This document shows positions 5,574 to 58,791 of a stretch of DNA of 64,000 nucleotides, piece by piece. Under the pieces are notes generated by a model. That model was not told where the DNA came from and made no database searches. It worked only from the letters and a program-made list of their open reading frames with translations. Position numbers and translations under genes: made by a program. Source of the DNA: an uncultured Pseudomonadota bacterium (GTDB lineage: Bacteria; Pseudomonadota; Alphaproteobacteria; UBA9219); assembly GCA_903824505.1 (NCBI GenBank), contig CAIJXG010000045.1:756-64755 (forward strand), given 5' to 3'. Position 1 is the first letter of the stretch; each line of letters starts with the position of its first letter.

Positions 5574-5665
5574 GTAGTATAGTTGGGCACCTTCGGAACC
5601 CCTTAAGTTTCATCCGCGCAAAAGGCGCATCAGCTTCGCTGCGTCCGTGTTTTGCACGGAATCGA
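5574..5665. repeat. MITE-like repeat family A, partial copy lacking one terminal hairpin
   Basis: Shares ...ggcaccttcggaaccccttaagtttcatccgcgcaaaaggcgcatcagcttcgc...gtgttttgcacggaatcga with copies at 12226, 28886, 36799, 41844, 43311 and 58674. Confidence 0.85.
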
Positions 5666-5686
5666 TCCGTTTTTCAGAGTAGGTTC

Positions 5687-6664
5687 GTGACCTTGATTTC
5701 TCCGTCTTGTTGGGTTGTGACCCACGGCGTGCCCGGCGTCGAAAATCAGTGTTTGGGCGTGGCCGAGGCGTTAGGGCTTACCCCTACCCTCAAGCGCATC
5801 ACGCTGCGCGCGCCGTGGAGGCAGCTTAGTCCCTTTTTGCGCTGGGGGCTGCGTCATGCTTTGAGCGCCGAGGGCGATCGTCTTGCACCGCCTTGGCCGG
5901 ATTTATTGATTGCCTCGGGACGGGCCAGCGTTTTGGCCTCGCTTTACGTGCGGCAGGAATCGCGCCGTGCGGGGGGGCGCGGGACTTTTACCGTTCAGAT
6001 TCAAAATCCGGTCATTGATCCGTCCCATTTTGATCTGGTGGTCGTGCCGCGTCATGACTTATTAAACGGGCCGAATGTTCTGAGCACTACAGGAAGCCTG
6101 CATCGCGTTACGCCCCAACGTCTTGTTCAAGAGGCGGAAAAATTCGCATCGGCCTTCGCGCCCTTCAAGCCGCCCTATCACGTTGTGCTTTTTGGGGGCA
6201 GCAACGCTGTGTATAAGCTGACTCGGAAGGAAATGACGGTGTTAGCCGCGCAGTTAAGGGCCGTAGCGGCGCAGGGGGGCAGTTTGCTGATTACCGCGTC
6301 CCGCCGGACGGGAGAGGAAAATCTTAGGATTTTGCAAGAGGCTCTGCAGGGGCTTCCCGCTTTTATTTGGGATGGCACAGGCCCTAATCCCTATTACGCG
6401 ATGCTACATATGGCGGATATTCTTCTTGTTACCTGTGACAGTGTGAATTTAGTCTCTGAAGCCTGCGCGACCGGAAAGCCTGTGATGATCCTTGACTTGC
6501 CGGGCGGATCGGACAAATTTCGCCGCTTCCACCAAGCCTTGCACGAGGACGGCCTCACCCGTCCGTTCAAAGGGGCGGTGGAGCGCTGGCATCCCAAGCC
6601 GCTGGAGGATGTGCAGCGTGTTGCCGATAGGATTCGCGGGATGCGTGGATTGGGAAACAACTAA
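5687..6664 (+). CDS. ELM1/DUF1022 family protein (mitochondrial-fission ELM1-like, predicted nucleotide-sugar enzyme)
   Basis: CWVVTHGVPGVENQCLGVAEALGL is the typical ELM1-family N-terminus; ~325 aa; common in Alphaproteobacteria. Confidence 0.75.
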   Translation: MTLISPSCWVVTHGVPGVENQCLGVAEALGLTPTLKRITLRAPWRQLSPFLRWGLRHALSAEGDRLAPPWPDLLIASGRASVLASLYVRQESRRAGGRGTFTVQIQNPVIDPSHFDLVVVPRHDLLNGPNVLSTTGSLHRVTPQRLVQEAEKFASAFAPFKPPYHVVLFGGSNAVYKLTRKEMTVLAAQLRAVAAQGGSLLITASRRTGEENLRILQEALQGLPAFIWDGTGPNPYYAMLHMADILLVTCDSVNLVSEACATGKPVMILDLPGGSDKFRRFHQALHEDGLTRPFKGAVERWHPKPLEDVQRVADRIRGMRGLGNN

Positions 6665-6679
6665 CTTTTTGGAGTCTTT

Positions 6680-9070
6680 ATGAAATTCACCGTCTCTTGG
6701 CTTAAACAGCATTTGGATACCACCGCCTCGCTCGCGGAGATTTGCACGAAGCTGACCGCTTTGGGGCTGGAGGTCGAGGGCGTCGAGGATTACAGCCAAA
6801 AACTCGCGCCCTTCATCATCGGGCATGTTGTGGAGGCCGTTCCCCATCCCAATGCCGACCGTTTGCGTGTCTGCACCGTTGATACGGGGACAGAGACATT
6901 GCAAATCGTGTGCGGCGCATCGAACGCACGTGCGGGAATCAAGATTGTGCTGGCGCGACCCGGAGATGTCATGCCGGATACCGGACAGGCTTTGAAGAAA
7001 GGCGCGATCCGTGGCGTTGAGTCTCAAGGCATGATGTGCGCGGTGGATGAGCTGGGCATCGGCGACGCGCATGAAGGGATTATTGAATTGGATGCAGCGG
7101 CGCCTGTCGGCAGCTCTTTCGCTGCCTATGCGGGCTATGATGATGCGATGATCGAGATCAATCTGACTCCGAACCGTCCCGATTGTGCGGGGGTGCGCGG
7201 CATTGCGCGGGATCTGGCGGCGGCAGGGTTGGGCACGCTGAAGCCTTTGGACACAACGGCGGTCAAAGGCACAGAAAAATCGCGCATTCAAATTATTTTG
7301 GACGATCCCGCTTGTCCTCTTTTCGCCGGACGTTTGGTGCGGAATATCAAAAATACCGAAAGCCCCGCTTGGCTGCAGCAAAGGCTGCGGATGATCGGGC
7401 AACGGCCTATCTCCGCGCTGGTGGATATCACGACTTATCTGACCGTTGACGCGGCGCGGCCTTTGCATGTGTTCGATGCGAAAAAGATCAAAGGCAATCT
7501 ATGGATTCGCCCCGCCCAAGGCGGCGAGAGCTTTGAGGCGTTGAACGGGAAGATTTATACGCTCAGCGAAGGCATGACCGCGATTGGTGATGACACAGGC
7601 GTTTTAAGCCTCGGCGGTATCATGGGCGGATCCAGCACCGCCTGTGACGAAAACACAACCGATGTGTTTATCGAAGCGGCCTATTTCGATCCGTTGCGGA
7701 TTGCGTTGACGGGACGCGCACTGCAGTTAACCTCGGATGCGCGTTACCGGTTCGAGCGCGGCGTGGATCCTTTGTTTACCTTGGACGGGATGGAAATCGC
7801 CACGCGCTTGGTTGTCGAGCTGTGTGGAACGCCAGAGACTATTGTCAGCGAGGTTGAAGTCGCAGGGAAAGCGCCTGTACTTGAAAAAACAATCCATCTT
7901 GATCTCGCCAAATGTTTTAAACACACGGGCGTGGATCTGCCGGTTACCGAACAAGAACAAATCCTGACGCGGCTTGGCTTCACGGTTCAACAGGAAAACG
8001 GAAGGCTGCGTGTTACGCCCCCCAGCTGGCGGCCGGATATCGACGGCAGCTCGGATCTGATCGAGGAAATCATTCGCGTCAAAGGCTATGAGCATCTGCC
8101 CGCGACCTCTCTGCCGCGCCACGAAGCGATCACGCGTCCCGCCATCGATACGGAAGAGGCGCGGCTTCACACCGCGCGGCGGGTTTTGGCGATGCAGGGT
8201 TTGATGGAGGCCGTCACATGGTCCTTCATGCCTGCAGAGATTGCCGCGTTGTTTGGGGCGATTCCGGATGAGCTCCGGCTCGTCAATCCGATCAGCAGTG
8301 ATCTGGACGTCATGCGGCCTTCTTTGCTGGGAAATCTGATTCTAGCTGCCAAACGTAACGTGGATCGCGGCGCGGCGGATGTCGCGTTGTTTGAAGTGGG
8401 GCCTGCTTTTGCCTCGGCCGCGCCAGAGGGACAACGGACGATCGCGACCTCCCTGCGTGCGGGATTATCGCCGCGTCATTGGAACGCCCCCACCCGCGCG
8501 GTCGATGTTTTCGATGCTAAGGCCGATGCGCTGGCTGTTCTGGCGGCTTTGGGCGTGCCAACCGCGAATCTGCAAATCACAACCGATGCGCCTGTTTGGT
8601 ATCATCCGGGAAGGTCGGGCGTGTTGCGTCTTGGTCCTCATCCGTTGGCTTTCTTCGGGGCTCTTCATCCGCAGATCATTGATGCCTGCGGGGCCTCAGG
8701 ACCGATGGTTGGGTGTGAGATTTTCCCTGAGGCGATTCCTGTCGCGCGTAACGCCGGCTCAGCCAAACCCTTGCTGGTTTTGGATGCTCTGCAACCCGTT
8801 ACCCGCGACTTCGCCTTTTTGGTGGAAGGGTCTGTTACGGCGGCGAAATTGGTGAAGGCCGTCAAAGATGCCGAGAAAAGCCTTATTCGCGCCGTGACAG
8901 TTTTCGATGTCTATGAAGGCGAGAAAGTCGAGAAGGGTAAAAAATCCGTCGCCTTAAGTGTCACGCTGCAGCCAACTCAGAAAACCCTGACCGATGCGGA
9001 AATCGATGCGATTGCGGCAAAAATCACCGACTCAGTCGCCAAGGCCACAGGAGGACAGTTGCGGGGGTAA
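6680..9070 (+). CDS. pheT: Phenylalanine--tRNA ligase beta subunit
   Basis: MKFTVSWLKQHLDT start, tRNA-binding (EMAP-like) domain GHVVEAVPHPNADRLRVCTVDTG, B3/4 and B5 regions, 796 aa. No pheS upstream. Confidence 0.93.
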   Translation: MKFTVSWLKQHLDTTASLAEICTKLTALGLEVEGVEDYSQKLAPFIIGHVVEAVPHPNADRLRVCTVDTGTETLQIVCGASNARAGIKIVLARPGDVMPDTGQALKKGAIRGVESQGMMCAVDELGIGDAHEGIIELDAAAPVGSSFAAYAGYDDAMIEINLTPNRPDCAGVRGIARDLAAAGLGTLKPLDTTAVKGTEKSRIQIILDDPACPLFAGRLVRNIKNTESPAWLQQRLRMIGQRPISALVDITTYLTVDAARPLHVFDAKKIKGNLWIRPAQGGESFEALNGKIYTLSEGMTAIGDDTGVLSLGGIMGGSSTACDENTTDVFIEAAYFDPLRIALTGRALQLTSDARYRFERGVDPLFTLDGMEIATRLVVELCGTPETIVSEVEVAGKAPVLEKTIHLDLAKCFKHTGVDLPVTEQEQILTRLGFTVQQENGRLRVTPPSWRPDIDGSSDLIEEIIRVKGYEHLPATSLPRHEAITRPAIDTEEARLHTARRVLAMQGLMEAVTWSFMPAEIAALFGAIPDELRLVNPISSDLDVMRPSLLGNLILAAKRNVDRGAADVALFEVGPAFASAAPEGQRTIATSLRAGLSPRHWNAPTRAVDVFDAKADALAVLAALGVPTANLQITTDAPVWYHPGRSGVLRLGPHPLAFFGALHPQIIDACGASGPMVGCEIFPEAIPVARNAGSAKPLLVLDALQPVTRDFAFLVEGSVTAAKLVKAVKDAEKSLIRAVTVFDVYEGEKVEKGKKSVALSVTLQPTQKTLTDAEIDAIAAKITDSVAKATGGQLRG

Positions 9071-9540: not shown

Positions 9541-10320
9541 ATGGTCGAACTCGCGCTTCCCAAACATGCCCGCGTCACGCAAGGCAAGGTTTTTCCTGCA
9601 CTGCCTGAGTGTAAGCGTCCGAAGACGTTTAAGATCTATCGCTGGTCGCCGGAAGAAGATGTGCCACCGCATGTGGACAGTTATGTGATTGATCTTGATG
9701 CGTGCGGCCCGATGGTTTTGGACGCGATCATTTACATTAAAAACAAGATCGACAGCACGCTGACTTTCCGCCGTTCGTGCCGCGAGGGGATTTGCGGCTC
9801 TTGTTCCATGAATATCGATGGCACGAACACGCTGGCTTGCACCAAACCCATTGAGGACATCAAAGGTGACGTGAAAATTTACCCCCTGCCCCATATGGAA
9901 GTCGTCAAGGATCTTGTGCCAAATTTGACGCCCATTTACGCGCAATATGCGGTGATCGAGCCGTGGCTGAAAACCGAAACCCCCGCGCCGGATCGGGAAA
10001 GACTTCAAGCGCCCGAAGACCGAGCCAAGCTGGACGGGCTGTATGAATGTATTTTGTGTTTTTGTTGTTCCACAAGCTGCCCTAGCTATTGGTGGAACAG
10101 CGACCGCTATCTGGGACCTGCCGTTTTGCTGCAAGCCTATCGCTGGCTGGTCGATAGCCGTGACGAGGCGGCGGGAGAGCGACTCGATGCGCTGCAGGAC
10201 CCCTTCCGTCTCTATCGGTGCCATACGATTATGAACTGTACCAAGACCTGCCCCAAGGGTCTAAACCCCGCCAAAGCGATTGCGGAGACGAAGAAGCTGT
10301 TAGCCGAGCGGAGTCTCTAG
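9541..10320 (+). CDS. sdhB: Succinate dehydrogenase iron-sulfur subunit
   Basis: [15 protein letters not shown] (2Fe-2S), [12 protein letters not shown] (4Fe-4S), [17 protein letters not shown] (3Fe-4S); 259 aa. sdhCDA is not adjacent. Confidence 0.93.
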
Positions 10321-10485
10321 AGCCCTGCGTCACCTAAAAAGGAAGGAGAGGACGCTGAGATTTTTTGACGAGACAAAAACGAAAATCGCACCCCTGTATT
10401 GGACATACAGGCAAGGTTTTTGATTTTGTCCCGGCGAAAAATCTCAGCGTCCTCTCCTTCCTTTTTAGGTGACGCAGGGCTCTAG
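10315..10485. repeat. Nested palindromic element family B (~170 bp) between convergent sdhB and lexA. Probable bidirectional terminator.
   Basis: Perfect ~50-bp arms ctagagccctgcgtcacctaaaaaggaaggagaggacgctgagatttttt / reverse complement, with an inner hairpin cctgtattggacatacagg. The sdhB stop (10318-10320) and the lexA stop (10482-10484) both lie inside the arms. A second copy is at 53561..53721. Confidence 0.9.
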
Positions 10486-11144
10486 TACCGCCGCATCAAG
10501 GCGACGAGTCGGCCTTGCACCTTCACGCGCGAGGCGGGGAGGCGGCGGGTCTCATAGGCTTCATTAGCGGGTTTCAGAAGAATAGATGCCCCGTCTTTTT
10601 TCAGATATTTCAGTGTCACTTCCTGCTCGTCAATCAGGGCGACAACAATCGCCCCTGTCTCGGCCGTATCGCAAGACTGGATAATGACAGTATCCCCATG
10701 CCTAATCCCGGCCTCGATCATGGAATCGCCTGAAACTTCAAGCGCGTAGTGGGAAGTTGAGGTCTGTTTTCCCACCGATGAGGCTAACAAAGAAGCTGGA
10801 ATTTCAAGGTTTGACTGCGGATTGCGGAGCGCTTCAATAGGCGTGCCCGCCGCGATACGCCCGTAAAGAGGCAGAGTCTGAACGGCGGCGTTCTCCGGCT
10901 GCGGCACAGACGCGTCAGCCCCCCCCTCCTCTGTCGGAAGACGCAGAATTTCAAGAGCGCGGGCGCGATGGGGCAAACGGCGGATAAAACCACGCTCCTC
11001 AAGCCCTGTAATCAGGCGATGAATGCCGGATTTCGACTTGAGGCCCAGCGCCTGCCTCATCTCATCAAAAGAGGGCGAGATTCCGCCTTCCTCCAAATGG
11101 GTGCGGATAAGATTGAGCAGTTCTTTTTGCTTGCGGGTCAGCAT
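10482..11144 (-). CDS. lexA: LexA repressor
   Basis: N-terminal winged HTH ([28 protein letters not shown]) and C-terminal S24 peptidase region ([17 protein letters not shown]...); 220 aa. Confidence 0.93.
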
Positions 11145-12225: not shown

Positions 12226-12296
12226 ATACTTGGGCCCCTTCGGAACCCCTTAAGTTTCATCCGCGCAAAAGACGCATCAGCTTCGCCGCGTCCGTT
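12226..12296. repeat. MITE-like repeat family A, partial copy
   Basis: cttgggccccttcggaaccccttaagtttcatccgcgcaaaagacgcatcagcttcgccgcgtccg. Confidence 0.8.
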
Positions 12297-14212: not shown

Positions 14213-14408
14213 TATCGACGGTTTCTTTTTGTCTCCTTTGTTCTTGTTGTTTCCTGTCGTTGCGCCCTCGTTGGCCGAGGGAAAGCCGCGCGGCTCCCGT
14301 CTTCTTCCGGAAAGCCTCTTCACAGAAAACCACCTGAGGATCTGGGCCTGTCAAGCTTCCAGCCTCCTGGGTAGTGGGTCAGTTTGAATCTTAACTGAGA
14401 GGCGATAA

Positions 14409-15545
14409 TTAACCTTTGTCTAAAAGAAACAAAAACTCTCTATTCTGCTCTTGTGCGTCACGAAGCCATTCATTAGTCCAGGTCATTCCTGCCATCACAT
14501 TGCGCTTATAGTCTAGCTCGATAACCTCGATAAGCTCCCCTGCATCCCTCATGGCTTCATTTAGTTCTCTAGCTGTTGCCCTTCCACCAGAACTGTATGA
14601 TAGAATTATATATTGGGTTGGGGTGTCCTTGATAAGTTTGTGGATTGCTTCGACAGCTATAAAGTTGCCATCATCATTACGGCGAAACTCTTCAAATATA
14701 GAAGCCGCCACATCATCTCTAGTATCGACTCGTCGATTTACCTTGCCAAAAACTTCGGGTTTGTCGTTCAGGCAAACCGTCGTCCATACATGGTAATAGG
14801 CCGAATAGCGAACGCGAGATGGGGGCATTTTTTCATTATTAGAACCATACGGTGGGTCATAGTAAGCTAGATCGGCCTTAATGCCCAGTGCAATATCAAA
14901 TACATCGCCATTGGTGACTTCATGCACATCCTCACAATCAATAATGTCAGGAACCTGTAGGCGCATGTGTTTAAATGAGCGGGGTGACCAGTCCCGCAGA
15001 TATGAAGAAAAATGCCCTAGCGTGCTGTCAACTTGATCAAGTGCCATCATAAGACTGGTCAAGGCGACAGCTTTTTCGTTAACATCGAGTCCAAGACGAT
15101 CTATTTCTTCCCGTATTCCATCAAGTTTTCGCGTGTTATGAATTTGCCACGGCATTTTTATCGGATTTTCCATGTCAATCGAGGAAGGGTCGCCGCCATA
15201 GTGTTGTGTGAACCACCCATCTCGAGGCTTACATGCGTTCAAATCATCAATGAGTTTCTGATATTTAGTTTTTGAACCTGCCTTTAAATAACAACGCCCT
15301 AATACCTCTGACCAGACAGCGCGGTCATTACAAATTACCTTGTACCCATATCGGGCGAGTGCCTGCGAAACTCTGGTAGAACCAGCGAAGCCATCGAAGA
15401 TAACTTTCGCATCAGTTTTTCCTGCCAACCATAAAATCTGGGGCAGCAATTTTAGTTTTGATCCAGCATACTTGATGCCCTCCGTAGGTGGGGGCACGGG
15501 GTAGCTTGTAGTAAAAAGCTCTTTTTGTAGAGCCAGATGATTCAT
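14409..15545 (-). CDS. Dam-family (D12 class) N6-adenine DNA methyltransferase
   Basis: N-terminal IKYAGSKLKLLPQILWL (Dam-like xxAGGK motif), FDGFAGSTRV (AdoMet motif I) and DPPYG catalytic motif IV; 378 aa. Confidence 0.8.
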   Translation of the reverse strand: MNHLALQKELFTTSYPVPPPTEGIKYAGSKLKLLPQILWLAGKTDAKVIFDGFAGSTRVSQALARYGYKVICNDRAVWSEVLGRCYLKAGSKTKYQKLIDDLNACKPRDGWFTQHYGGDPSSIDMENPIKMPWQIHNTRKLDGIREEIDRLGLDVNEKAVALTSLMMALDQVDSTLGHFSSYLRDWSPRSFKHMRLQVPDIIDCEDVHEVTNGDVFDIALGIKADLAYYDPPYGSNNEKMPPSRVRYSAYYHVWTTVCLNDKPEVFGKVNRRVDTRDDVAASIFEEFRRNDDGNFIAVEAIHKLIKDTPTQYIILSYSSGGRATARELNEAMRDAGELIEVIELDYKRNVMAGMTWTNEWLRDAQEQNREFLFLLDKG

Positions 15546-16420
15546 AATTGGTTGCTTTCTTTTAACTGCTGAATATCTTTTTTAATTTCAATGAGTGCCC
15601 TGTCATGTCCGGCACTTGATGAAACAAGAGCATGAGAAAACAACTGCACCAGTATCTTGTTGTGGGAATAATCGACCCATCCACTAGTGATGCTGTCGAA
15701 ATGCTTTAATGCGTTGCGAGTATGTGTCCATAAGCCACGTTGTAGGGCGTTTGCTGCGGCATCCCCATATCTAACTTCGCAAATATAATCATTGTTACTA
15801 TCATAGAATCGAAAAACAGGATGCTTTCTTCCGCTGCCTTCATGGGCACGCTCTATCTTTGCTGTCTGGGTACGAGCCGCTTCATAATCGAAAACCAAAA
15901 TGTTACATCTTTGTTTTTTCTCATCGTATATGAGAGGCAATACATTAATCTGCAAGAACACAGCAAACGCAGGGTCAGAAAAAATTGCATCAATTCTCTC
16001 GCGTCCCTCGATGATGTGATCAATCTCTTTCATCAATCTGGGATACATCAACGTATTTTTATCGGTTGATAATTGAAGGGGGCCGTCACCATACGCCTTT
16101 AAGCTAACTGGAAATTGGGCTTTAGTGATTTCGTTGGTAATAGTGATGTCTTCTTCTCTCGACTTTGCTCGATATAAGTCTTTGCCCACATGGAGTGACT
16201 TAAAGTCATACATGTATTGGTTGATAAATTCAGCTATTGCAATCTCAGCCAAATCACCATGAGTTTTATTTCCTATGAGGCGCATCGTGAAAATGTTGCT
16301 CAGTGTCGTTGTTATTAATGCAGGATGTTTGCTTATAAACAGCTTCAACCTGTTGGTAAAATCTTTATACGGGTTTTGATCGGTCATTGTTGATCTGTTT
16401 CGTGTGATGTTAAACGGCAT
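15542..16420 (-). CDS. Putative type II restriction endonuclease (cognate partner of the Dam-family methyltransferase)
   Basis: 292-aa ORF whose stop overlaps the MTase start by 4 nt. No MTase motifs. Possible PD-(D/E)xK-like region (...SDPAF...IYDEKK...). The call rests on context. Confidence 0.45.
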   Translation of the reverse strand: MPFNITRNRSTMTDQNPYKDFTNRLKLFISKHPALITTTLSNIFTMRLIGNKTHGDLAEIAIAEFINQYMYDFKSLHVGKDLYRAKSREEDITITNEITKAQFPVSLKAYGDGPLQLSTDKNTLMYPRLMKEIDHIIEGRERIDAIFSDPAFAVFLQINVLPLIYDEKKQRCNILVFDYEAARTQTAKIERAHEGSGRKHPVFRFYDSNNDYICEVRYGDAAANALQRGLWTHTRNALKHFDSITSGWVDYSHNKILVQLFSHALVSSSAGHDRALIEIKKDIQQLKESNQL

Positions 16421-16423
16421 TTT

Positions 16424-17269
16424 TCAGCCAACCATTTTGTTAGCCTCCCACTCATCAGTGATTCGCACAATATCTTCGATAGAGAATAGCGTTTCACTCA
16501 CACCCGCCGCTATTGCAGGGCTTACCCGCAAAGTCTGGTGAATACGCACAAAATTATAGTGCATGAAGTAAATCGCCAGCGCGTAGTAATGGTTTTCAAT
16601 CTTTTTTGAAAACGCATTGGTTAGGCGCGTAAAGCGGCGGTTGCCCATACGGATATTTAGGTTCTGGCGTTCAACATAGCTTGTCGAAACGTGTTTTCCG
16701 TCGGGATTGCCTCTTATTACCTCCTTGCGAGAAGCAACGTATTCCGCAGGGCTATAACGCTTCTCGCCAGAAAAATCTGCGCCGTATATTTTTACAAGTT
16801 GGGCAAAATCAATATCATTCCCGAAAGCACCCTCTACAGCTTCAACATAAGCTTTCAAGCCGTCGCTGGTAAGCTGGACACGATTTGCAAGACGGCTTGC
16901 CAGATCGGATATAAACGCCTTGGCGCATTCGCCGTCGCGTCCACCAAGATAGAATGAAGGAACAAGTTTGGTATCGGCATCAATCGCTGTCCATGTCCAA
17001 ACATCACCAGCTTCGCCAAGCTTTTCCTCTGGCACATTCTTGGCCTTCGCATAAACGAAAGACCAAATTTCATCGACCTGTAAACGCCTGCATGACAGAT
17101 TACGAAAGGCCCCATCCTGATAATCAGCGCAGGCCTTCCCTGCATCAACCAGAAGCTTTGCAATCGTATTTTTGCTTGCTCCGGTTAAGCGGCTGATAGA
17201 ACGAATAGACATACCCTCAACCATCATGCCGAGGATTTGTGCGCGTTGTGTGGTGGAAAGCTTATTCAT
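16424..17269 (-). CDS. DDE transposase (IS1/IS1595-like)
   Basis: N-terminal HTH (QRAQILGMMVEGMSIRSISRLTGASKNTIAKLL), then LQVDEIWSFVYAK...WTWTAIDADTKLV...LTSDGLKAY, typical of IS1/IS1595-type DDE cores. Its stop is 3 nt before the REase start codon. Confidence 0.7.
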   Translation of the reverse strand: MNKLSTTQRAQILGMMVEGMSIRSISRLTGASKNTIAKLLVDAGKACADYQDGAFRNLSCRRLQVDEIWSFVYAKAKNVPEEKLGEAGDVWTWTAIDADTKLVPSFYLGGRDGECAKAFISDLASRLANRVQLTSDGLKAYVEAVEGAFGNDIDFAQLVKIYGADFSGEKRYSPAEYVASRKEVIRGNPDGKHVSTSYVERQNLNIRMGNRRFTRLTNAFSKKIENHYYALAIYFMHYNFVRIHQTLRVSPAIAAGVSETLFSIEDIVRITDEWEANKMVG

Positions 17270-17371
17270 AATGACTCTTATACTTGAGAATGATTATTTT
17301 GTCAATAAGCAAAAGTAGAATAATTGCTATTTTTCCTTTGACTCTTGGTTATTGATTGGGGCATAAGCAAT

Positions 17372-17402
17372 GAACGGTTCAGAAGATGTTTCTGAACCGT
17401 TC
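17372..17402. promoter_or_regulatory. Perfect 13-bp stem / 5-nt loop hairpin in the divergent region between the transposase and HTH genes
   Basis: gaacggttcagaa-gatgt-ttctgaaccgttc. It lies upstream of both divergent genes, so it is not a terminator for either. It may be an operator or an element end. Confidence 0.4.
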
Positions 17403-17565
17403 CAAAACCTAGGGGGTTTTATGTACTTGCTTAGAGAGATATAGTCCTAACCCACGACGCCATGATGCTTTGACCGGCCTTGAGCGTTTAGTGGTACGGA
17501 CGAGAACGGGTTGAAAGACCCGCCCCTTTGTAGGGACATATAAACATATATTGACGGTGTAAGCA

Positions 17566-17988
17566 ATGAAAAACATCCAATCGCCCGTGGGCGAACGTGG
17601 CTTCTCTCTGCTTGATTTAAAAGCAAAAGAAGTAGAGTTAGAGGACGCATTAAAACAAGTAAAAGATGCTATCCAAGTATTTGATAAATTGGAAAAAAGC
17701 GGTATTTTTCCGAAGTATGGCATTGTGGCAGAAACGCCATTATTCGAGCCATTGTATAAACAAGGTGAGTTTGCAGATTTAAGCGTATATGAAGGGGCTG
17801 TTTCACTTCTAATGCAGAAAAAACAATCACTTACAACAGATGAAATTGTTGACGGTCTTATTAATGGGGGCAAAAAAATAGGTGATAATGCTCGCGTAAT
17901 AGTGGCAACTACACTTTATAAGTCGGTAAAAAAGAAGAAAAATTGCAAGATAGCGGTGGCGGGTACCGGAAAGTGGAAACTAGCTTAG
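17566..17988 (+). CDS. Small HTH-like protein (HARE-HTH-like winged helix?)
   Basis: SLTTDEIVDGLINGGKKIGDNARVIVATTLYKSVKKK resembles HARE-type winged-helix segments; 140 aa; AT-rich. Confidence 0.45.
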   Translation: MKNIQSPVGERGFSLLDLKAKEVELEDALKQVKDAIQVFDKLEKSGIFPKYGIVAETPLFEPLYKQGEFADLSVYEGAVSLLMQKKQSLTTDEIVDGLINGGKKIGDNARVIVATTLYKSVKKKKNCKIAVAGTGKWKLA

Positions 17989-18221: not shown

Positions 18222-18494
18222 ACTCCTATTATGGCATGGATTGTGAACAGGTCAAAAAATTTCAGATTTCAAACTGACCCACTACCGCCTCCTGAGGTTT
18301 CTGTCGGACGGCATGCCGCCCATTGAAAAAGTCTTTCTCAGCCCGCCAGTTTCCTAGGATAGCGGGAGGAGGTTTGACCCTTCCAACGCTCCTCTTTCAA
18401 GAAGCGTGAGGGATATATAACCTAGTAAAGTGGGAAAGTCAACATGTTTTTTTAAAAAATGTGAAAAATCTTTTTTTGCTTCTTTTTATAAGGA

Positions 18495-18545
18495 CATACT
18501 CGGTTTCCTTGGAAAGCGGAAAGGATATAAGGACTCTTGCGCGAA
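18495..18545. repeat. MITE-like repeat family A, degenerate partial copy
   Basis: catactcggtttccttggaaagcggaaaggat... matches the terminal hairpin of the copy at 28886. Confidence 0.7.
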
Positions 18546-50164: not shown

Positions 50165-50261
50165 AGCGCAAACAAGCCGATTGCACAGCCAAACGTCCCG
50201 ACCTTCGGGCGGCAAGACGCAGTCTTTTAACCGATGGAAAGACCCCAACTCTCAGAAGAGA

Positions 50262-50300
50262 GGGAAACACGGCTCATTCCTGCCGTGTTCCCTTTCTTTT
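50262..50300. terminator. Probable bidirectional terminator hairpin between convergent bpt and nusA
   Basis: gggaaacacggc-tcattcct-gccgtgttccc followed by tttcttttacg. Overlaps the nusA stop. Confidence 0.6.
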
Positions 50301-51789
50301 ACGCTGACACCTCATCGTTAAACCAATGCGCCCGCGCGGCCATGATGATGCCGTTGGCTTGCGATTCCGTCAGAGCGTCTTCGCCTACGATTTCGCGCAG
50401 CTCATCACCTGCCAGATCGGCCACATCGTCCAGAGATTTCACGCCCTTTTCGCCCAGCTTCACGGCCATTTCGATACTCAGACCCGCCAGCGCAACAACG
50501 GCATCCGACACGCCGAATTCCTTGCGTTGAGCTTCCAGACGCGCCGCGTTTTCGGCCAGCCAGTTACGGGCGCGCTCTTGCAGCTCGCCCGCCACTTCGA
50601 CATCGAACCCTTCGATTTCGGCCAGTTCGTCCACGGGGGTTTCCGCGATTTGCTCGACTTTCGTAAAGCCTTCCGCGACCAAGAGATGCGCGATGACATC
50701 GTCAACGGACAGAGCTTCCGTAAAGAGCGCCGTTCGCATCGCTGATTCCTGTTGGCGACGTTCGGATTCTTCCTTTTCGGTCAGAATGTCGATGTCCCAG
50801 CCTGTGAGCATCGCGGCAAGCCGCACATTCTGCCCGCGGCGGCCAATGGCCAGCGAAAGCTGCTCATCCGGTACGACAACATCCATGCGGTTGTTTTCGT
50901 CGTCCAAAACGACTTTGGCGACTTCGGCCGGCGCAAGAGCGTTGACAACAAAGGTCGCGGGATCGGGCGACCAAGGAATAATGTCGATCTTTTCGCCCTG
51001 CAATTCACCGACGACCGCTTGAACGCGGCTGCCACGCATACCGACGCACGCGCCGATCGGATCAATGCTGCTGTCGTTCGAGACAACCGCCAGTTTCGCG
51101 CGGCTGCCCGGATCGCGGGCGACGGATTTGATTTCGATGACTCCGTCGTAGATCTCCGGCACTTCTTGCGTGAAGAGCTTGGCCATGAACAAAGGATGGG
51201 TGCGAGACAAGAAAATTTGTGGCCCACGTTGTTCTTCGCGCACATCATAGATGTAAGCGCGTACGCGATCGCCCGTTTTCAGATGCTCGCGCGGCAGGCT
51301 TTCATCCCGCTTAATGACGGCTTCGGTGCGGCCCAAATCAATCGTGACATTCCCGTATTCGACGCGCTTGACGACGCCGCTGATGATCTCGCCCACGCGG
51401 TCTTTGTATTCTTCATATTGACGGTGACGTTCAGCCTCGCGCACTTTTTGCACGATCACTTGCTTGGCCGTTTGCGCCGCGATGCGGCCCATTTCGATGG
51501 GGGGCAAATCATCCACGATAAAATCGCCCAATTCGGCATCCGGCTTCGTCTTACGCGCCGCTTTGACACTGAGTTGCGTCAATTCATTCTCGATCGGATC
51601 AGCCACTTGCAGCCAGCGCTGCAGAATGATCTCGCCCGTCCTGCGGTCCACAAAAGCGCGGATATCATGCTCGTGCCCATATTTGGCGCGGCCAGCCTTC
51701 TGCATCGCTTGTTCCATTGCGACCAGAATTTCTTCTTTGTCGATGCCCTTTTCTCGGGCGGCCATCTCGGCGGCTTGCAAAAGTTCCAT
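50299..51789 (-). CDS. nusA: Transcription termination/antitermination factor NusA
   Basis: [22 protein letters not shown]..., S1 and KH domains, C-terminal acidic repeats; 496 aa. Confidence 0.95.
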
Positions 51790-51818
51790 GTCGGTGTCCT
51801 TTCTTCTTTCTGTGTGCC

Positions 51819-52256
51819 TTATTTGTAGAGTGAGAATTTTCTGGTCAAGGAGCTTAAAAGCTCCGCATCGCCAAAAAAGACAGCTCCGTAAAACTCAAGC
51901 GCCTCATGCGGCGTTTCTTTCGTACGAGCCAGCTGTTCCTGATAAGTGCCGACGGTCATGGTGTTTACAAAATCAACCGTCAGGATGTTTGCTTGTTTCG
52001 CCGCCTCCATCGCTTCCCGAATCTTCGTCGGTCTGCCTTTAAGCACGATGAAAGGATAGGCTGAAATAGACGGGTGGTGCGTGCCTGAGGCATCTTCATA
52101 ATCGCACATCAACCCGTCTTGAGGCCCCAAAAGCGTTCCCATCCCCAAAGCCATATGTGCCAGCGTGTTCACAGCCGTGCCCGCCTCAACCTTTTCGTTG
52201 AGAACCGCGACCAGTTTTTTGGTCATGGCGACCGGAGGATCCTTGAGCGTGATCAC
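51819..52256 (-). CDS. DUF2000-family protein
   Basis: 145-aa ORF between rimP and nusA; composition and size are consistent with DUF2000. Low-certainty family call. Confidence 0.45.
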   Translation of the reverse strand: MITLKDPPVAMTKKLVAVLNEKVEAGTAVNTLAHMALGMGTLLGPQDGLMCDYEDASGTHHPSISAYPFIVLKGRPTKIREAMEAAKQANILTVDFVNTMTVGTYQEQLARTKETPHEALEFYGAVFFGDAELLSSLTRKFSLYK

Positions 52257-52753
52257 TTTTTGCTCTCCCTCAGCGCTTCCTTCATCAAGGCATCTGTCAG
52301 CACCAGTTTAGCCTGTTCGATCTCTTGAAAAGGCACGGAAATCAGGCCCTTATCTGTTTCAAATACAAGGGTCTCTTCCGATGCACACGCAATCTTTCCC
52401 TGAAAGCGTCTGACGCCGTCCATGGGGGCCTTAAGGTCAATTTTGGCGACATGCCCCTGAAACCGGATGTAATCTTTGAGCCGTGTCAGGGGGCGGTCGA
52501 TTCCGGGCGAGCTAACCTCAAGGTCATATTTTCCGGCAAAATCTGGTTCAACCTCAAGCCGTGCCGAGACCAAAGAACTCACCCGCGCACAATCCTCGAC
52601 CTTGATGCCACACCCATCCACGCGCTCCACCATGATTTGAAGCGCCGCGTATTTCCCGTTGCCGCTCAGATGCACGCGCACAAGCTCGTAGCCGGCGTTT
52701 GCGACATCTTCCGCAATCAAGGAAGCTACCTTTGTTGGTACCGCTTTCGACAT
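52253..52753 (-). CDS. rimP: Ribosome maturation factor RimP
   Basis: VANAGYELVRVHLSG...LEVSSPGIDRPL; start trimmed to the ATG at 52753. Confidence 0.88.
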   Translation of the reverse strand: MSKAVPTKVASLIAEDVANAGYELVRVHLSGNGKYAALQIMVERVDGCGIKVEDCARVSSLVSARLEVEPDFAGKYDLEVSSPGIDRPLTRLKDYIRFQGHVAKIDLKAPMDGVRRFQGKIACASEETLVFETDKGLISVPFQEIEQAKLVLTDALMKEALRESKK

Positions 52754-52887
52754 CACTCTATCCCAAAAAGGGTGAGCCAATAAAAAAGGCGGGCTCTCGC
52801 CCACCTCCTCACTTCTTTTCCTCTGACACCCCCTTTATTCCCGATCTCCTTGATGAAATCAAGTTTTTTGTTTAGGTGGGCCCCATA

Positions 52888-52930
52888 TATACTCGGGCAC
52901 CGAAGGAACCCCTTAAGTTTCATCGGCGGC
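52888..52930. repeat. MITE-like repeat family A, partial copy
   Basis: tatactcgggcaccgaaggaaccccttaagtttcatcggcggcaa. Confidence 0.75.
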
Positions 52931-52971
52931 AAGGGTGGACAAGATTTCTGTTCATGATATAGGGGGATAGG

Positions 52972-53574
52972 ATGAAAAAGATAACGCAAGCGCATCGCCC
53001 ACAGGGCAAAAAACGGGTAGAGGCAGGGGATCGCCTCTGCCTCGTCACGCGCGAAACCCTTCCACACACGGCTCTGATCCGCTTTGTCATTGGGCCGGAT
53101 CAAAGCGTTGTGCCTGATCTTGGGGAAAATCTGCCCGGCCACGGGCTTTGGGTATCCGCAAGCCGCCCCTCTATCCAAACCGCTGTCCAGAAAAATCTTT
53201 TTGCTAAAGCCACCAAGGAGCAGGCGCGAGCCGATCCCGATCTGGCGGATCATATCGCGGCCTTATTGCGTAAACGCTGCCTGTCCCTTCTGGGTCTGGC
53301 CAAAGGCGCAGGTCTTGCGGTTCTGGGCGAATCACAAACGGAAAGCGCGTTGCGTGAGGGGAAACTTGCGCTTTTTCTGCACGCGCCGGATGCCATGCAT
53401 CCTCTTGATAATCGTCGCGAGATTCCGGCCTTTGCTCTTTTCTCGCGTGAGGAAATGGGCGCCGCCTTCGGCTATGAGCAAATCGTCTATGCGGGGCTTA
53501 TGCCTCATCGGCTGACACAAAAGCTGCAAGATGAAATCGGGCGATTAATCCGCCTAGTGCCCTGCGTCACCTAA
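52972..53574 (+). CDS. YlxR (DUF448) / L7Ae-like fusion protein
   Basis: RLCLVTRETLPHTALIRFVIGPD...PGHGLWVSA (YlxR) followed by LLGLAKGAGLAVLGESQTESALREGKLALFLHAPD (L7Ae-like). This is usually encoded between nusA and infB; here it is divergent from rimP. Confidence 0.8.
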   Translation: MKKITQAHRPQGKKRVEAGDRLCLVTRETLPHTALIRFVIGPDQSVVPDLGENLPGHGLWVSASRPSIQTAVQKNLFAKATKEQARADPDLADHIAALLRKRCLSLLGLAKGAGLAVLGESQTESALREGKLALFLHAPDAMHPLDNRREIPAFALFSREEMGAAFGYEQIVYAGLMPHRLTQKLQDEIGRLIRLVPCVT

Positions 53575-53721
53575 AAAGAAAGGAGAGGACGCTGAGATTT
53601 CTTAACGGGACAAAAACGAAAACTGCACGCCTGTATTGGACATACAGGCAAGGTTTTTGATTTTGTCCCGGCGAAAAAGATCAAGTCAAATCCTTTCTTT
53701 TTAGGTGACGCAGAGCACTAG
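53561..53721. repeat. Nested palindromic element family B, second copy
   Basis: cctgcgtcacctaaaaagaaaggagaggacgctgagatttc...cctgtattggacatacagg...ttaggtgacgcagagcactag. The ylxR-like gene's stop codon lies inside the left arm. Confidence 0.88.
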
Positions 53722-53873
53722 AGGCCTAAAGGAGGATTTTTTCCTCTGCCCCAGCCTTAAAAGGAGTGTTCTTCCAATTTTTATCTTTTCTTAACCATCT
53801 CTTAGGTCTTTCTTCATACAGATTTGTTTAAATAGCAGTTGAAAAGACGTGTTTCCTTCCTGTCTGCGGTCTT

Positions 53874-56864
53874 ATGTCAAACCTTCTGGATCAAACTCTT
53901 GCCGCCTTGATGATGGCGTTGCGCCAACCGGTTGAATCCTTCATTCAACTTGAAACGGCGGACGATAAAACGACTCTTGTCGCCAATGACGGGTCTTTAG
54001 TGACTTTTGTCAAAATTTTCGGCGCGCGGCAAATCATTGGCGATGCGGAATATCAATGGATCTTGGATCAAGCCACGCTAAAGCTAGGGGCGCGGTTCGA
54101 CCGCCCGGGTTATGCGATGCAGGTCTATTTTATGCGGGATCCCGGGCTTGCCGATCATGACATCGAACAGGTGATGAAAGGCAACCGCGCCGCCATGCGC
54201 GCAACCGATCTGGACCTGACCGATCTGCTCAACGAACGTCGCCGCAATCTGGCGCACTATATCGCGCATGAGGAAATTTATTTCGTTTTGTGGACGCGCC
54301 CTTCGGTTCTTACAAAATCAGAGCTGGCCTCCACCACGAAGCAAATGACAAAAAAGAAATGGGTGGCAGCCCCTAACGCCCAATATCCCTTGCGTGCGCT
54401 GGATGCGTTGCGCACCAAACATAAAGCCTTTGTGTCCTCGATCTCTAGCGCGTTGGAAGAAATCGGTATCAAAGCCGCCGTCTCGACGACGCATGAAGCG
54501 CTGGCCGCCGTGCGCGGCAATATCTATCCCCAAATGGCGAATGATCAGTGGCGGGCGAATCTCCCGGGCGATCCCATGCTGCCGCGCATGCCTTTGCACG
54601 GGAATTACGACGCCTCGGATCTTTTGTGGCCCCCTTTGCGTGAACAACTCAGCGTGGGGGATGCCGCTCTCGTCTCGTCCAATATCGTGCGGATCGGGAC
54701 GATTCTGTGGGGAGGCGTGGATATGACTCTTGCGCCCGCAGAGCCGGCGCCTTTTCCCCAATTGCTTGCGCGTCTGATCGAACAAGATGTCCCTTTCCGC
54801 ATCTCTTTCCTGATCGAAAGCGGGGGCACGCAAGGCACCTCTTTCAAATCTTTCGCGGCGGGGGTTTTGGGCTTTACCAATCAGGTTAATAAGCAAATCC
54901 GCGAATCCCTGATGTCGCTTCAAAAACTGGCCCATAGCGAACCGATCGTTAAACTGCGCGTGTCTTTGGCAACTTGTGCGCCCCAAACCGACCGCAAACT
55001 TTTGGAATCACGGATTAGCATTTTGACCCAAGCCGTCGAAGCGTGGGGCTATTGTCAGGCCTCCTCTGCCGGAGGCGATCCGATGGAAGTGGTCATGTCC
55101 TCGGCCTTAGGGATTGGATGCGGCTCGACCGCGCCGCCCGTCGTCGCGCCTTTCCGCGAAGTTATCAAGCTTTTGCCGTGGCAACGGGCCTCCTCGCCTT
55201 TTCAGGAGGGGGCCGTCATTTTACGTACGCCCGATGGGCGTATTTGGCCCTATCAGTCGGGATCTTCTCTGACATCCCTCTGGTTCGATTTGATTTTTGC
55301 TCAGCCCGGCGCGGGTAAATCCGTCCTGATGAATGCGCTGAATTTAGGCACGATCCTTTCGGCCGGCATGGCGCAGCTTCCCTATGTCGCCATTTTGGAT
55401 ATTGGCCCCTCTTCCTCCGGCCTCATCTCGCTGATCAGGGATGCTTTGCCGCTTGAGCGGCGGCATGAGGCGATGCATTTCAAACTCCGCATGACACCGG
55501 ACTACGCGGTGAATCCCTTCGATACACAGCTTGGCTGCCGCTATCCTTTGCCGGAGGAACGCGCCTATCTGACCGAGCTCCTAACCCTTCTCTGCACGGC
55601 TGCCGGACAAGAACCCTATGATGGCATGGCGCAGCTGGTTGGTCTGTGCATCGATGAAATGTATCGCTGGCGCGACGACAGCGGCGCGAATACGGAACCG
55701 CGCCCTTATCTGGCGCGTGTTGAATCCGATGTCGATGAAGCGTTATCCCGTTACAACATCCATCTGCCAGAAGATCCGTATTGGTGGGATGTCGTCGATG
55801 CCTTGTTTCAACATGGCGCCGTTCATCAAGCGATTCTGGCGCAACGCTATGCGGCCCCGACTTTGGTAGATGCCGTCACCGCCGCGCGTCGGCCGCAGAT
55901 TCGGGCCCTGCTTGAAGGAACGCAAATCGGCTCCTCGGTCGAAACCGTCATTCACGCCTTCGAGCGCATGATCGCTGCCGCCGTGCGCGAATTTCCGATT
56001 TTGGCATCGATTACACGTTTTGATGTTGGTGGGGCGCGCATCGCCGCAATCGATCTTCAGGATGTCTCGCCCCAAGGCGATGCCATTGCCGATCGGCAAA
56101 CGGCCATTATGTATATGCTCGCGCGGCATGCGTTGATCCGCGGGTGGTGGCTGGGGCCCGATATGCTCCGCGCGGTGCCCGAGGCCTATAAAACCTATCA
56201 TCAGGCCCGCATTCAGGACATTCGCGAAACGCCGAAACGCATTTGTTTCGATGAATTTCATCGCACAAGCCGAACAGCGGCCGTCCGCGCGCAAGTCATC
56301 CGCGATGTGCGCGAGGGGCGGAAATGGGGCGTGCAAATTGTCTTGGCCTCGCAGCTGCTCGACGATTTTTCGAAAGACATGGTGGATCTGGCGACAGGCG
56401 TTTGGATCTGCGGCACCGCCGTATCTGACCGCGCGATCAATGAAACGGGCGAGCGTTTTGGCCTTTCAGAAACAGCGAAATGGGTCATGCGGTACCGTCT
56501 GACAGGCCCTAAAGCGTCCGGTGCGCCTGTTCTCCTGCTTCTGTCAACTAACGAAGGGCGCTACGAACAACATCTGGTCAATACGCTTGGCCCTATCGAG
56601 CTTTGGGCCCTGTCAACCTCCGTCGAAGATGTGACGTTGCGCAGTATTCTTTATACCTCCCTCAGCGCACCCATCGCGAGGCAGGTTCTGGCCAAATTTT
56701 TCCCGGGCGGATCGGCACGGCAAGAAGTCCGGCGACGCGTTGTGCTCCGCATTGAAAAAGGAGAAGTCGAATCGGGAGCGACTTCTGTCGTTATTCAAGA
56801 AATGGCCAAGGAGCTGATCTCCAGCGTCTATACAGACCCGTCAAAAAGCATGGCGCGCGGATAA
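53874..56864 (+). CDS. Large orphan VirB4/TraC/IcmB(DotO)-like P-loop ATPase (FtsK-HerA superfamily)
   Basis: 996 aa. N-terminal region LVANDGSLVTFVKIFGARQIIGDAEYQ...GYAMQVYFMRDP resembles VirB4/IcmB N-domains. Walker A FAQPGAGKSVLMNAL (~aa 480) and Walker B ICFDEFHR (~aa 795). No other secretion or conjugation genes in the window. Confidence 0.5.
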   Translation: MSNLLDQTLAALMMALRQPVESFIQLETADDKTTLVANDGSLVTFVKIFGARQIIGDAEYQWILDQATLKLGARFDRPGYAMQVYFMRDPGLADHDIEQVMKGNRAAMRATDLDLTDLLNERRRNLAHYIAHEEIYFVLWTRPSVLTKSELASTTKQMTKKKWVAAPNAQYPLRALDALRTKHKAFVSSISSALEEIGIKAAVSTTHEALAAVRGNIYPQMANDQWRANLPGDPMLPRMPLHGNYDASDLLWPPLREQLSVGDAALVSSNIVRIGTILWGGVDMTLAPAEPAPFPQLLARLIEQDVPFRISFLIESGGTQGTSFKSFAAGVLGFTNQVNKQIRESLMSLQKLAHSEPIVKLRVSLATCAPQTDRKLLESRISILTQAVEAWGYCQASSAGGDPMEVVMSSALGIGCGSTAPPVVAPFREVIKLLPWQRASSPFQEGAVILRTPDGRIWPYQSGSSLTSLWFDLIFAQPGAGKSVLMNALNLGTILSAGMAQLPYVAILDIGPSSSGLISLIRDALPLERRHEAMHFKLRMTPDYAVNPFDTQLGCRYPLPEERAYLTELLTLLCTAAGQEPYDGMAQLVGLCIDEMYRWRDDSGANTEPRPYLARVESDVDEALSRYNIHLPEDPYWWDVVDALFQHGAVHQAILAQRYAAPTLVDAVTAARRPQIRALLEGTQIGSSVETVIHAFERMIAAAVREFPILASITRFDVGGARIAAIDLQDVSPQGDAIADRQTAIMYMLARHALIRGWWLGPDMLRAVPEAYKTYHQARIQDIRETPKRICFDEFHRTSRTAAVRAQVIRDVREGRKWGVQIVLASQLLDDFSKDMVDLATGVWICGTAVSDRAINETGERFGLSETAKWVMRYRLTGPKASGAPVLLLLSTNEGRYEQHLVNTLGPIELWALSTSVEDVTLRSILYTSLSAPIARQVLAKFFPGGSARQEVRRRVVLRIEKGEVESGATSVVIQEMAKELISSVYTDPSKSMARG

Positions 56865-56878: not shown

Positions 56879-56910
56879 TATACTCGGCTTTCCAAGGAAA
56901 CCGAGTATAG
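56879..56910. repeat. MITE-like repeat family A, terminal-hairpin fragment
   Basis: tatactcggctttccaaggaaaccgagtata. Confidence 0.8.
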
Positions 56911-58571: not shown

Positions 58572-58631
58572 AAAAAACGCCTCGCTATTGTTGAAGACAG
58601 CAGATCCAAGAGTAACGTGTAACGATTTTTA

Positions 58632-58660
58632 CAGATCCCCCCAGATCCCCCCAGATCCCC
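58632..58660. repeat. Short tandem repeat (cagatccccc) x3
   Basis: acagatccccccagatccccccagatcccc, immediately upstream of a MITE copy. Confidence 0.85.
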
Positions 58661-58673
58661 TTGTTCCCTTTGA

Positions 58674-58791
58674 TATACTCGGTTTCCTTGGAAAGCCGAG
58701 TATTCTGCTCCGTGCAAAACACGCGCTCAGCGAAGCTGATGCGCCTTTTGCGCGGACAAAACGTGAGGGGTTCCGAAGGAACCCGAGTATA
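58674..58791. repeat. MITE-like repeat family A, full copy
   Basis: tatactcggtttccttggaaagccgagtattctgctccgtgcaaaacacgcgctcagcgaagctgatgcgccttttgcgcggacaaaacgtgaggggttccgaaggaacccgagtata. Confidence 0.92.

Follow-up and report, generated by a model that had tools for sequence, protein, structure and literature searches.

The 64,000-nucleotide stretch of DNA analyzed here (the window) lies within a 66,230-bp contig of the metagenome-assembled genome (MAG; ENA ERZ1426852) of an uncultured alphaproteobacterium. Between its genes, which include ftsA, tsf, rimP, nusA, cmk and mltA, recurs a short non-coding repeat that we refer to as family A. This repeat occupies 12 sites in the window (4 intact copies, 1 nearly complete copy, 6 partial copies and 1 probable weak remnant), corresponding to one site per 5.3 kb and to 1.4% of the window. 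Over the whole window, a 29-nt motif from the core of the element has 7 matches at no more than 3 mismatches versus 0.00 expected from shuffled sequence, and a 25-nt motif from its first terminal hairpin has 8 matches, 5 of them exact, versus 0.00 expected. The repeat is thus real and unusually dense, because 12 sites are present in 64 kb where chance predicts none. Three site-finding methods agree, namely BLASTN with the copy at 36799-36916 as the query, a repeat search and a covariance model. An earlier sequence-only reading of the window had claimed at least 11 copies. All 11 sites carry the repeat, with the earlier coordinates pointing to the right places and being off by 0-4 nt, and to these we add a twelfth, probable remnant at 22763. 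The motifs quoted earlier for both terminal hairpins and the core are all present as written.

Anatomy and genomic sites of family A

A complete element is about 118 bp long (110-119 bp) and is composed, in this order, of a first terminal hairpin (hp1), a linker, a central hairpin, a second linker, a second terminal hairpin (hp2) and a tail. Segment by segment it reads TATACTCGGTTTCCTTGGAAAGCCGAGTAT, then TCGATTCC, then GTGCAAAAC-ACGCGCTCAGC-GAA-GCTGATGCGC-CTTTTGCGCGG, then ATGAAACTTAAGG, then GGTTCC-TTC/GAA-GGAACC, and finally CGAGTATA. The invariant 31-nt hp1, TATACTCGG-TTTCC-TT-GGAAA-G-CCGAGTAT, forms, when folded as DNA, a stem of 9 bp that a conserved one-base bulge separates from a further 4 bp capped by a tetraloop; the bulged base differs by strand, being G on one and C on the other. 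The central hairpin of about 49 nt consists of an A-tract, a GC-rich stem with a GAA loop and a T-tract. The second terminal hairpin has a 7-bp stem, GGGTTCC-GAA-GGAACCC, followed by the single-stranded tail GAGTATA. The two terminal hairpins are inverted with respect to each other and solo hp1 units exist, but hp2 repeats only part of hp1 and, with its 7-bp stem and unpaired 3' tail, is not a full inverted copy of it. The element is bounded by 14-nt inverted termini, TATACTCGGKTTCC, with the consensus TATACTCGG[T/G]TTCC; the left end TATACTCGGTTTCC matches the reverse complement of the right end TATACTCGGGTTCC at 13 of 14 nt in the copies at 43311 and 58674. Whole elements fold far better than shuffled sequences on either strand (z of -3.7 to -7.8 with RNA parameters and about -6.5 with DNA parameters). 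Although several reading frames are open, concatenated six-frame translations of the element found no protein match in 5.8 billion sequences.

Four copies are intact. The reference copy (36799-36916, plus strand; 118 nt; 117 bits in the covariance model) begins 12 nt past the ftsA stop codon, between convergent genes. A second 118-nt copy (41844-41961, plus strand; 118 bits), 96% identical to the reference, lies between a histidine kinase gene and a divergently transcribed KamA-like gene, and the convergent KamA-like gene and tsf flank a copy of 119 nt (43311-43429, minus strand; 112 bits). The fourth, again 118 nt long (58674-58791, plus strand; 119 bits), is situated between the divergent genes cmk and mltA and has a fold z of -7.8. 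The 110-nt copy at 28886-28995 (plus strand; 75.6 bits), 11 nt past the stop codon of a WcaI-like glycosyltransferase gene, had earlier been listed as full alongside these four and is only nearly complete, since its hp1 has a mutated right arm and its hp2 has lost 11 nt. A 53-aa open reading frame (ORF) called within this copy (28926-29087) is a gene-calling artefact.

The partial copies retain different portions of the element. At 5578-5665 (minus strand), between divergent genes, the linker, central hairpin and hp2 are present and hp1 is missing (92% identity to the reference over 88 nt by BLASTN; 66.8 bits in the covariance model). Only the right half of the central hairpin and hp2 remain in the decayed copy at 12226-12295 (minus strand), between tRNA-Trp and an acyltransferase gene (92% over 61 nt by BLASTN; core motif with 2 mismatches; covariance model E=0.0025). 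A right-end remnant at 52888-52946 (minus strand), between divergent rimP and ylxR, comprises hp2 and the linker with a decayed core (95% identity over 41 nt by BLASTN). From the opposite end derives the remnant at 18495-18526 (plus strand), which consists only of an hp1 variant, CATACTCGGTTTCCTTGGAAAGCGGAAAGGAT, common to the copy at 28886, followed by decayed sequence; it was grouped by the repeat search (repeat family D5) at 94% identity to 28882-28917 and carries the hp1 motif with 3 mismatches. Two sites are solo hp1 units: 37875-37905 (plus strand), whose left arm has 2 mismatches and which is flanked by the stop codon of an EAL response-regulator gene (37914) and the likely start of a PIG-L gene (37838), and 56879-56909 (minus strand), a perfect 31-nt palindrome, TATACTCGGCTTTCCAAGGAAACCGAGTATA, located 14 nt past the stop codon of a 996-aa ORF. 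The weakest member, absent from the earlier list, is a probable solo right-end remnant of the hp2 type at 22763-22793 (minus strand; TATACTCGGGTTGCAAAGGAACCCG; BLASTN 84% over 25 nt, E=0.019; 13 of 14 nt of the terminal repeat; covariance model E=0.17).

All 12 sites are intergenic, although greedily called ORFs span about 85% of the window. This holds after one correction: the solo hairpin at 37875-37905 falls in a called 292-aa PIG-L ORF and is intergenic once the start is placed at ATG 37838, which is preceded by a GGAG ribosome-binding site; the PIG-L domain begins at "KNILILVPHPDDE". The PIG-L call is 36 codons too long and reads across the hairpin (37838-37947), a further gene-calling artefact. 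Based on the ORF map and the gene lists, five sites are located between divergent genes (5578, 12226, 41844, 52888 and 58674), two between convergent genes (36799 and 43311) and the remainder between same-strand genes. Both orientations of the element occur, as proposed earlier along with the intergenic placement, and the element does not point consistently with or against the genes. In practical terms, family A yields false ORF extensions in annotation and breaks short-read assemblies.

The copies could in principle be fragments of a single duplicated region, which had been named in advance as the outcome that would overturn the idea of dispersed insertions, or they could be an artefact of MAG assembly. 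Repeats of this kind do disturb assembly: short-read contigs tend to end within family A, one of them (L002) at 56907 in a solo hp1 and another (L009) at 36826 in hp1. We considered these contig breaks as a sign of extra copies beyond the window and rejected them as such, because the copies within the window suffice to explain them. The 200-nt flanks of all 12 sites show no mutual similarity at E<=0.01, and in a multiple alignment similarity ends exactly at the element ends; the copies are therefore independent, dispersed loci. They also differ among themselves by 4-26%. Assemblies made independently from three other samples reproduce stretches of 10.3 kb, 14.0 kb, 5.8 kb and 3.2 kb, together with the elements in them, at 100% identity, so family A is not an assembly artefact. 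Flanks and independent assemblies together refute both the single-duplication and the artefact explanation, to which we assign virtually no remaining probability.

Relatives, conserved structure and age

The core of family A appears to be confined to this lineage. A 25-mer from the core has zero exact matches in 185,579 GTDB species genomes and in JGI metagenomes, which indicates that the core is specific to this lineage and that the representative genomes do not include the source species. The NusA protein of the window matches itself at 100%, and all next matches are at no more than 88% identity, in uncultured MAGs labelled "Alphaproteobacteria bacterium" and, in a few cases, "Bdellovibrionales bacterium"; no closer relative was found in the databases searched. 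In about 48 kb from two relatives at 88% NusA identity (contigs L003/L004 and L006/L007), where about 8-9 copies would be expected at the density of the window, the covariance model finds zero copies. The high density of family A is thus specific to this lineage.

By contrast with the core, a 25-mer from hp1 does occur elsewhere, in two other alphaproteobacterial populations. It matches one GTDB MAG, "Alphaproteobacteria bacterium STCSWMC_35", with the same locus in two JGI metagenomes, and ten sites on four contigs (290-627 kb) of the metagenome Ga0326727. In every foreign match hp1 forms the left end of a 116-nt element of the same architecture, with TATAC...GTATA boundaries and a different core, which reads CGCAAAAAAC-ACGCGGGCGCG-GCA-CGCGCACGC-CTTTTTTGCG in Ga0326727 and CTGCAAAAAAC-AAGCGGTCAC-GAA-GTGATCCGC-CTTTTTTGCAG in STCSWMC_35. 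The Ga0326727 loci have only the element (116-119 nt) in common, and this sets the same TATAC...GTATA boundaries. The PheT protein of the Ga0326727 organism is 60% identical to that of the window. Exact hp1 matches number 10 per 1.9 Mb in Ga0326727 versus 5 per 64 kb in the window, a roughly 15-fold lower density. No family A match was found among PLSDB plasmids or IMG/VR viral contigs, and neither 12-nt terminal-repeat string occurs in the searchable literature. Family A itself is previously undescribed; the class of small mobile-type intergenic repeats that it resembles is already known. Sequence-defined repeat families of its kind are poorly documented for uncultured Alphaproteobacteria.

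The structure of the element was analyzed across 17 full elements from three lineages (alignment A1) by RNAalifold, with 500 shuffles and slid controls. Three hairpins with 34 pairs are recovered; 97.7% of cells are paired, and 11 of the 34 pairs have changed on both sides. None of the 500 shuffles reaches the observed pairing, and the slid controls are 26-54% paired with at most 4 double-changed pairs. Sequence conservation is distributed very unevenly. For hp1 the diversity amounts to 0.000 among the window copies, 0.006 in Ga0326727 and 0.003 from one to the other, and the remaining segments diverge by 9-30% inside a genome and by 16-81% from one genome to another. Such invariance is the pattern expected of a cis site needed for propagation. 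At the opposite end hp2 has changed in compensatory steps, from GGGTTCC/GGAACCC through GGGTTTC/GAAACCC to GGGTTTT/AAAACCC.

The sequence-only reading had suggested that the conserved core might encode a small structured RNA. The structure is strongly conserved, with compensatory changes; on the other hand, the element folds as well on one strand as on the other and also with DNA parameters, it has no consistent orientation to genes, and it has no counterpart in Rfam. Only three tRNAs in the window reach the Rfam gathering threshold, and a search at E<=10 with one window copy and one Ga0326727 copy returned nothing meaningful. We also looked for an asymmetry between the strands of the kind that would favor an RNA: folding energies are equal on both strands, and by our own rough count there were about 6-7 independent G·U events versus 4-5 A·C events. 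The idea of a small RNA is neither supported nor excluded by these results.

The central hairpin also raises the question of whether family A is first of all a host-functional cis element and only secondarily a repeat family, for example a portable bidirectional terminator or mRNA-stabilizing hairpin, a protein-binding palindrome, or a small RNA gene. Compensatory changes over three lineages have preserved the A-tract, GC stem and T-tract of this hairpin. The Ga0326727 version is terminator-like on both strands (5 matches vs 0.9 expected), and the STCSWMC_35 version (L010) is terminator-like on one strand. In the other genomes 11 of 12 elements are located downstream of at least one gene 3' end, and the terminal TATACT gives -10-like matches at the element ends. 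A terminator-like repeat family is known in pneumococcus, where the SPRITE element is, like family A, an interspersed repeat of about 105 bp with an intrinsic-terminator-like core (PMC3049150, PMC3184786). SPRITE differs in host and sequence, and the window copies of family A lack a T-tract consensus and any preference for gene 3' ends: no window copy gives a terminator-like match, only 4 T following the stem, and divergent genes flank 5 of the 12 window sites, where no terminator role is obvious, with orientations mixed rather than aligned with transcription. The depletion of divergent sites in relatives is not significant (p~0.16 against a 25% divergent expectation, by our own estimate). Equal folding of both strands and the empty Rfam search also count against a host-functional element, and function alone leaves dispersal with precise shared boundaries and unrelated flanks unexplained. 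We consider a primarily host-functional origin quite improbable. Should the core have been a portable bidirectional terminator, its window form is a degenerate one.

With respect to age, the high density had been taken earlier to suggest recent expansion, a view that the copies themselves do not support. The four intact copies are 84-96% identical (median 88%), and 7 of the 12 sites are truncated or decayed. The copies are mosaics that draw in different combinations on three left-linker variants, three central variants and two right-linker variants (ATGAAACTTAAGG and ACAAAACGTGAGG), which implies recombination or gene conversion among them. Judging from this divergence, family A looks like an old population with turnover rather than a recent burst.

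Possible mobility and its agents

Known families of miniature inverted-repeat transposable elements (MITEs) have terminal inverted repeats, long stem-loops, intergenic locations and TA flanks (PMC3184786). Family A likewise has terminal inverted repeats; at 110-119 bp it is shorter than 400 bp and without a transposase gene; and it is present in multiple dispersed copies with unrelated flanks, both at the 12 window sites and at the Ga0326727 loci. Its precise shared boundaries, 14-nt terminal inverted repeats, unrelated flanks, intergenic restriction, palindromes, decay products and single invariant cis segment place it with the MITEs and with the REPINs, which are built of repetitive extragenic palindromic (REP) sequences, as these classes are defined in earlier work (PMC3184786, PMC3337134). 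We consider it probable that family A is an undescribed family of small, non-autonomous, palindromic intergenic elements of this MITE/REPIN class, mobilized in trans. The earlier description as MITE-like holds in that the repeat is short, non-coding and dispersed and has terminal inverted repeats, strong palindromes and unrelated flanks; as no target-site duplication is demonstrable and no parent transposase was found, "MITE" denotes a likeness.

According to this model, a transposase encoded elsewhere in the genome would recognize the termini, hp1 above all, and would copy or move the element into intergenic TA or TATA sites, and selection would remove insertions in genes. Resident copies would then decay by point mutation, by truncation, by slippage across hairpins, as may have cost the copy at 28886 its 11 nt of hp2, or by deletion between the direct repeats GGAAAGCCGAGTAT and GGAACCCGAGTAT, which would leave 31-bp solo palindromes such as those at 37875 and 56879. 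At its end each of these two solo units reads ...GAGTATA, as at the right terminus, and not ...GAGTATT, as internally, which weakly suggests (n=2 solo copies) that such a deletion produced them. The central hairpin would have the shape of a bidirectional intrinsic terminator in the related lineages, its T-tract having presumably shrunk to 4 T in the window genome.

The search for a mobilizing enzyme covered the window and the surroundings of the foreign elements. The window encodes a single transposase, an IS1-like DDE protein (16427-17269). We examined the 3.9-kb IS1-like unit in which it lies (14370-18286) as a possible parent and rejected it, its perfect 19-bp inverted repeats (GGTAGTGGGTCAGTTTGAA) being unrelated to the family A termini. 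For 93 ORFs near the 12 elements in other genomes, the families listed by Pfam scans, in lists of at most 25 families, are all housekeeping ones and include no transposase. Y1_Tnp or RAYT proteins were likewise absent from the window gene lists and from the families listed for these 93 ORFs.

Several observations weigh against the MITE/REPIN model. No cognate transposase, nor any insertion sequence with matching terminal repeats, was found in the window or among the families listed near the 12 foreign elements. The two ends are unequally constrained, hp1 being invariant and the right end variable with compensatory changes; DDE transposases bind both terminal repeats, and among the MITEs that they move such inequality is unusual. 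No target-site duplication is demonstrable beyond an invariant and ambiguous TA or TATA at both ends: every copy starts with TATA and ends with TATA, nothing is duplicated outside, and a TA or TATA duplication would be indistinguishable from the termini of the element itself. No empty site or insertion polymorphism was found, since the other assemblies represent a 100%-identical strain and the relatives, at no more than 88% NusA identity, have a different gene order; loci L010 and L014 do not overlap with those in Ga0326727. The window IS1-like transposase, used as a query for other contigs of the same genome, proved to be single-copy and returned only the same locus. Transposition, the TA target, a transposase acting in trans and the routes of decay are steps that we infer, and a TA duplication is putative; the repeat, its dispersal, terminal inverted repeats, intergenic restriction and conserved structure, and its presence in other lineages, are shown. 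Finally, there is no sign of current activity among copies so diverged and decayed, and the invariance of hp1 in the foreign loci is partly a matter of ascertainment, as these were found by exact hp1 matches. The four intact window copies were recovered by a core-only search, and their identical hp1 is thus independent of hp1 matching; the sole Ga0326727 element found only by proximity (L022b) has one hp1 mismatch.

The unequal ends direct attention to REP- and REPIN-like systems. Here the terminal hairpins would be inverted, imperfect REP-type palindromes that a single-copy HUH/Y1 transposase, similar to RAYT or to IS200/IS605 enzymes, recognizes as folded single strands of DNA, with no target duplication and largely vertical inheritance. 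The strand-differing bulge of hp1 (G vs C) would, by analogy with IS608 and attC, allow strand-specific recognition of the folded hairpin. Invariance of sequence is limited to one end, nothing beyond TA or TATA shows as a duplication, and the identity of hp1 between lineages with 60% PheT identity suggests long persistence. Nonetheless, neither the window nor the families listed near the 12 foreign elements include a Y1 or RAYT gene, and RAYT genes are typically flanked by their REPs. Furthermore, hp2 is only a partial inverted copy of hp1, the classical 5' GTAG tetranucleotide of REPs is absent, and the family A ends are true terminal inverted repeats, whereas elements of the IS200/IS605 type are without terminal inverted repeats. 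The arrangement of two inverted palindromic units around a structured spacer, along with solo units, extragenic confinement and possibly long persistence, is similar to published descriptions of REPs and REPINs (PMC3337134, PMC3116915), but Group 1 RAYTs are reported to be rare in Alphaproteobacteria (PMC5581495). On balance, we regard this alternative as unlikely.

Returning to family A as a MITE-type element, the TA or TATA at both ends resembles that of the TA-duplicating MITEs Correia, ERIC and RUP. No sequence relationship to the Correia element (Correia repeat-enclosed element, CREE) is apparent beyond the leading TATA. Like family A, the CREE of Neisseria, ERIC and RUP are non-coding elements of about 100-160 bp that have terminal inverted repeats beginning with TATA, TA at both flanks, long stem-loops, very high intergenic density, a location often 5' of genes and -10-like terminal hexamers (PMC3184786). 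Family A differs from them in its alphaproteobacterial host, in the self-complementary hairpin at each end, in the unequal conservation of its ends and in a TA duplication that is only putative.

A further comparison concerns the CIR repeats of Caulobacter and other alpha-proteobacteria, which Chen and Shapiro are said to have defined in 2003 by an associated CcrM methylation site, GANTC. By eye, family A has no conserved GANTC: GATTC occurs in the first linker of four copies (5578, 36799, 41844 and 43311), and the site is absent from the copies at 58674 and 28886 and from the Ga0326727 elements. In this feature family A differs from the CIR repeats. Like family A, CIR repeats are intergenic, about 110 bp long and organized as inverted repeats (PMC3184786).

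It is conceivable, though in our view doubtful, that hp1 is the recognition hairpin of a lineage-spanning transposase or of a domesticated hairpin-binding enzyme. Family A would then be the alphaproteobacterial counterpart of REPIN-RAYT, long-lived across 60% PheT identity with hp1 fixed, carrying a portable bidirectional terminator as its evolving cargo, and its copies would mark or promote operon breaks. The invariant hp1 over deeply diverged hosts and the compensated, terminator-shaped core provide a handle for finding the moving enzyme, and the same features allow testing whether bacteria acquire terminators by transposition. As no more than a MITE family in decay, family A would be of routine interest.

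Operon breaks and other repeats in the window

Some family A copies are positioned at disruptions of gene order. In relatives, rimP-nusA-ylxR-infB form one co-directional operon. In the window (50299-53574), the minus strand carries nusA, rimP and, inserted between them, a DUF2000 gene, and ylxR diverges on the plus strand; infB is absent, and its place is taken by a 996-aa ORF (53874-56864) without a Pfam or NCBIfam family. The decayed copy at 52888 sits at the rimP/ylxR junction of this rearranged operon. The copy at 36799 directly follows ftsA with no ftsZ following, and that at 43311 comes after tsf with no pyrH or frr following; we take ftsQA|ftsZ and rpsB-tsf|pyrH to be breaks in the usual gene order. 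The other end of the putative rimP-nusA inversion (50165-50298) holds no element remnant, so neither recombination between copies nor a causal role in operon breaks is shown.

The window contains several other repeats. A MITE-like family, designated B, has two copies of about 185 bp (10308-10494 and 53554-53723) that are 92% identical; its 78-nt arms are 88% complementary, its ends begin with CTAGAGCCCTGCGTCACC, and a contig of another assembly (L001) starts inside the second copy. Repeat C (43532-43752 and 61018-61126) has the ends TATA[C/G]TTRAGCACGG...GGGCACTTGT(G)TATA. Its first copy abuts the family A copy at 43311 and contains an internal insert of about 115 nt, and its second follows tRNA-His. 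The left end of repeat C is similar to the family A right terminus (TATACTTGGGCACC), a hint that the two share a terminal motif; the copies of repeat C remain similar slightly past the right end, and C may not be a clean element. Repeat D, 75 nt long, is present in inverted orientation at 37006-37080 and 60615-60689 (89% identity), and one of its ends (...GGTGCGGTATA) resembles the right end of family A as well.

The IS1-like unit (14370-18286, about 3.9 kb) is transposon-like in organization, being delimited by the perfect 19-bp inverted repeats GGTAGTGGGTCAGTTTGAA and TTCAAACTGACCCACTACC. On the minus strand it encodes a D12-class N6-adenine DNA methyltransferase (14409-15545), an ORF without a Pfam family (15542-16420) and the IS1-like DDE transposase (16427-17269), which has an N-terminal helix-turn-helix domain, in addition to small ORFs. 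A 2.4-kb contig that covers the transposase (L023) has a GC content of about 44%, versus 54% for the window, and the transposase is single-copy in the database.

Two further repeats are local. Just downstream of tsf, beside a 193-aa ORF without a family, a 35-nt inverted repeat (44921-44955 and 45119-45153) is 91% complementary, with poly-C/poly-G runs and a 163-nt spacer. A 50-nt direct repeat (5263-5312 and 5341-5390; 82% identical, 78-nt spacing) is located in the 5' part of a 622-aa ORF without a family (3544-5424, minus strand).

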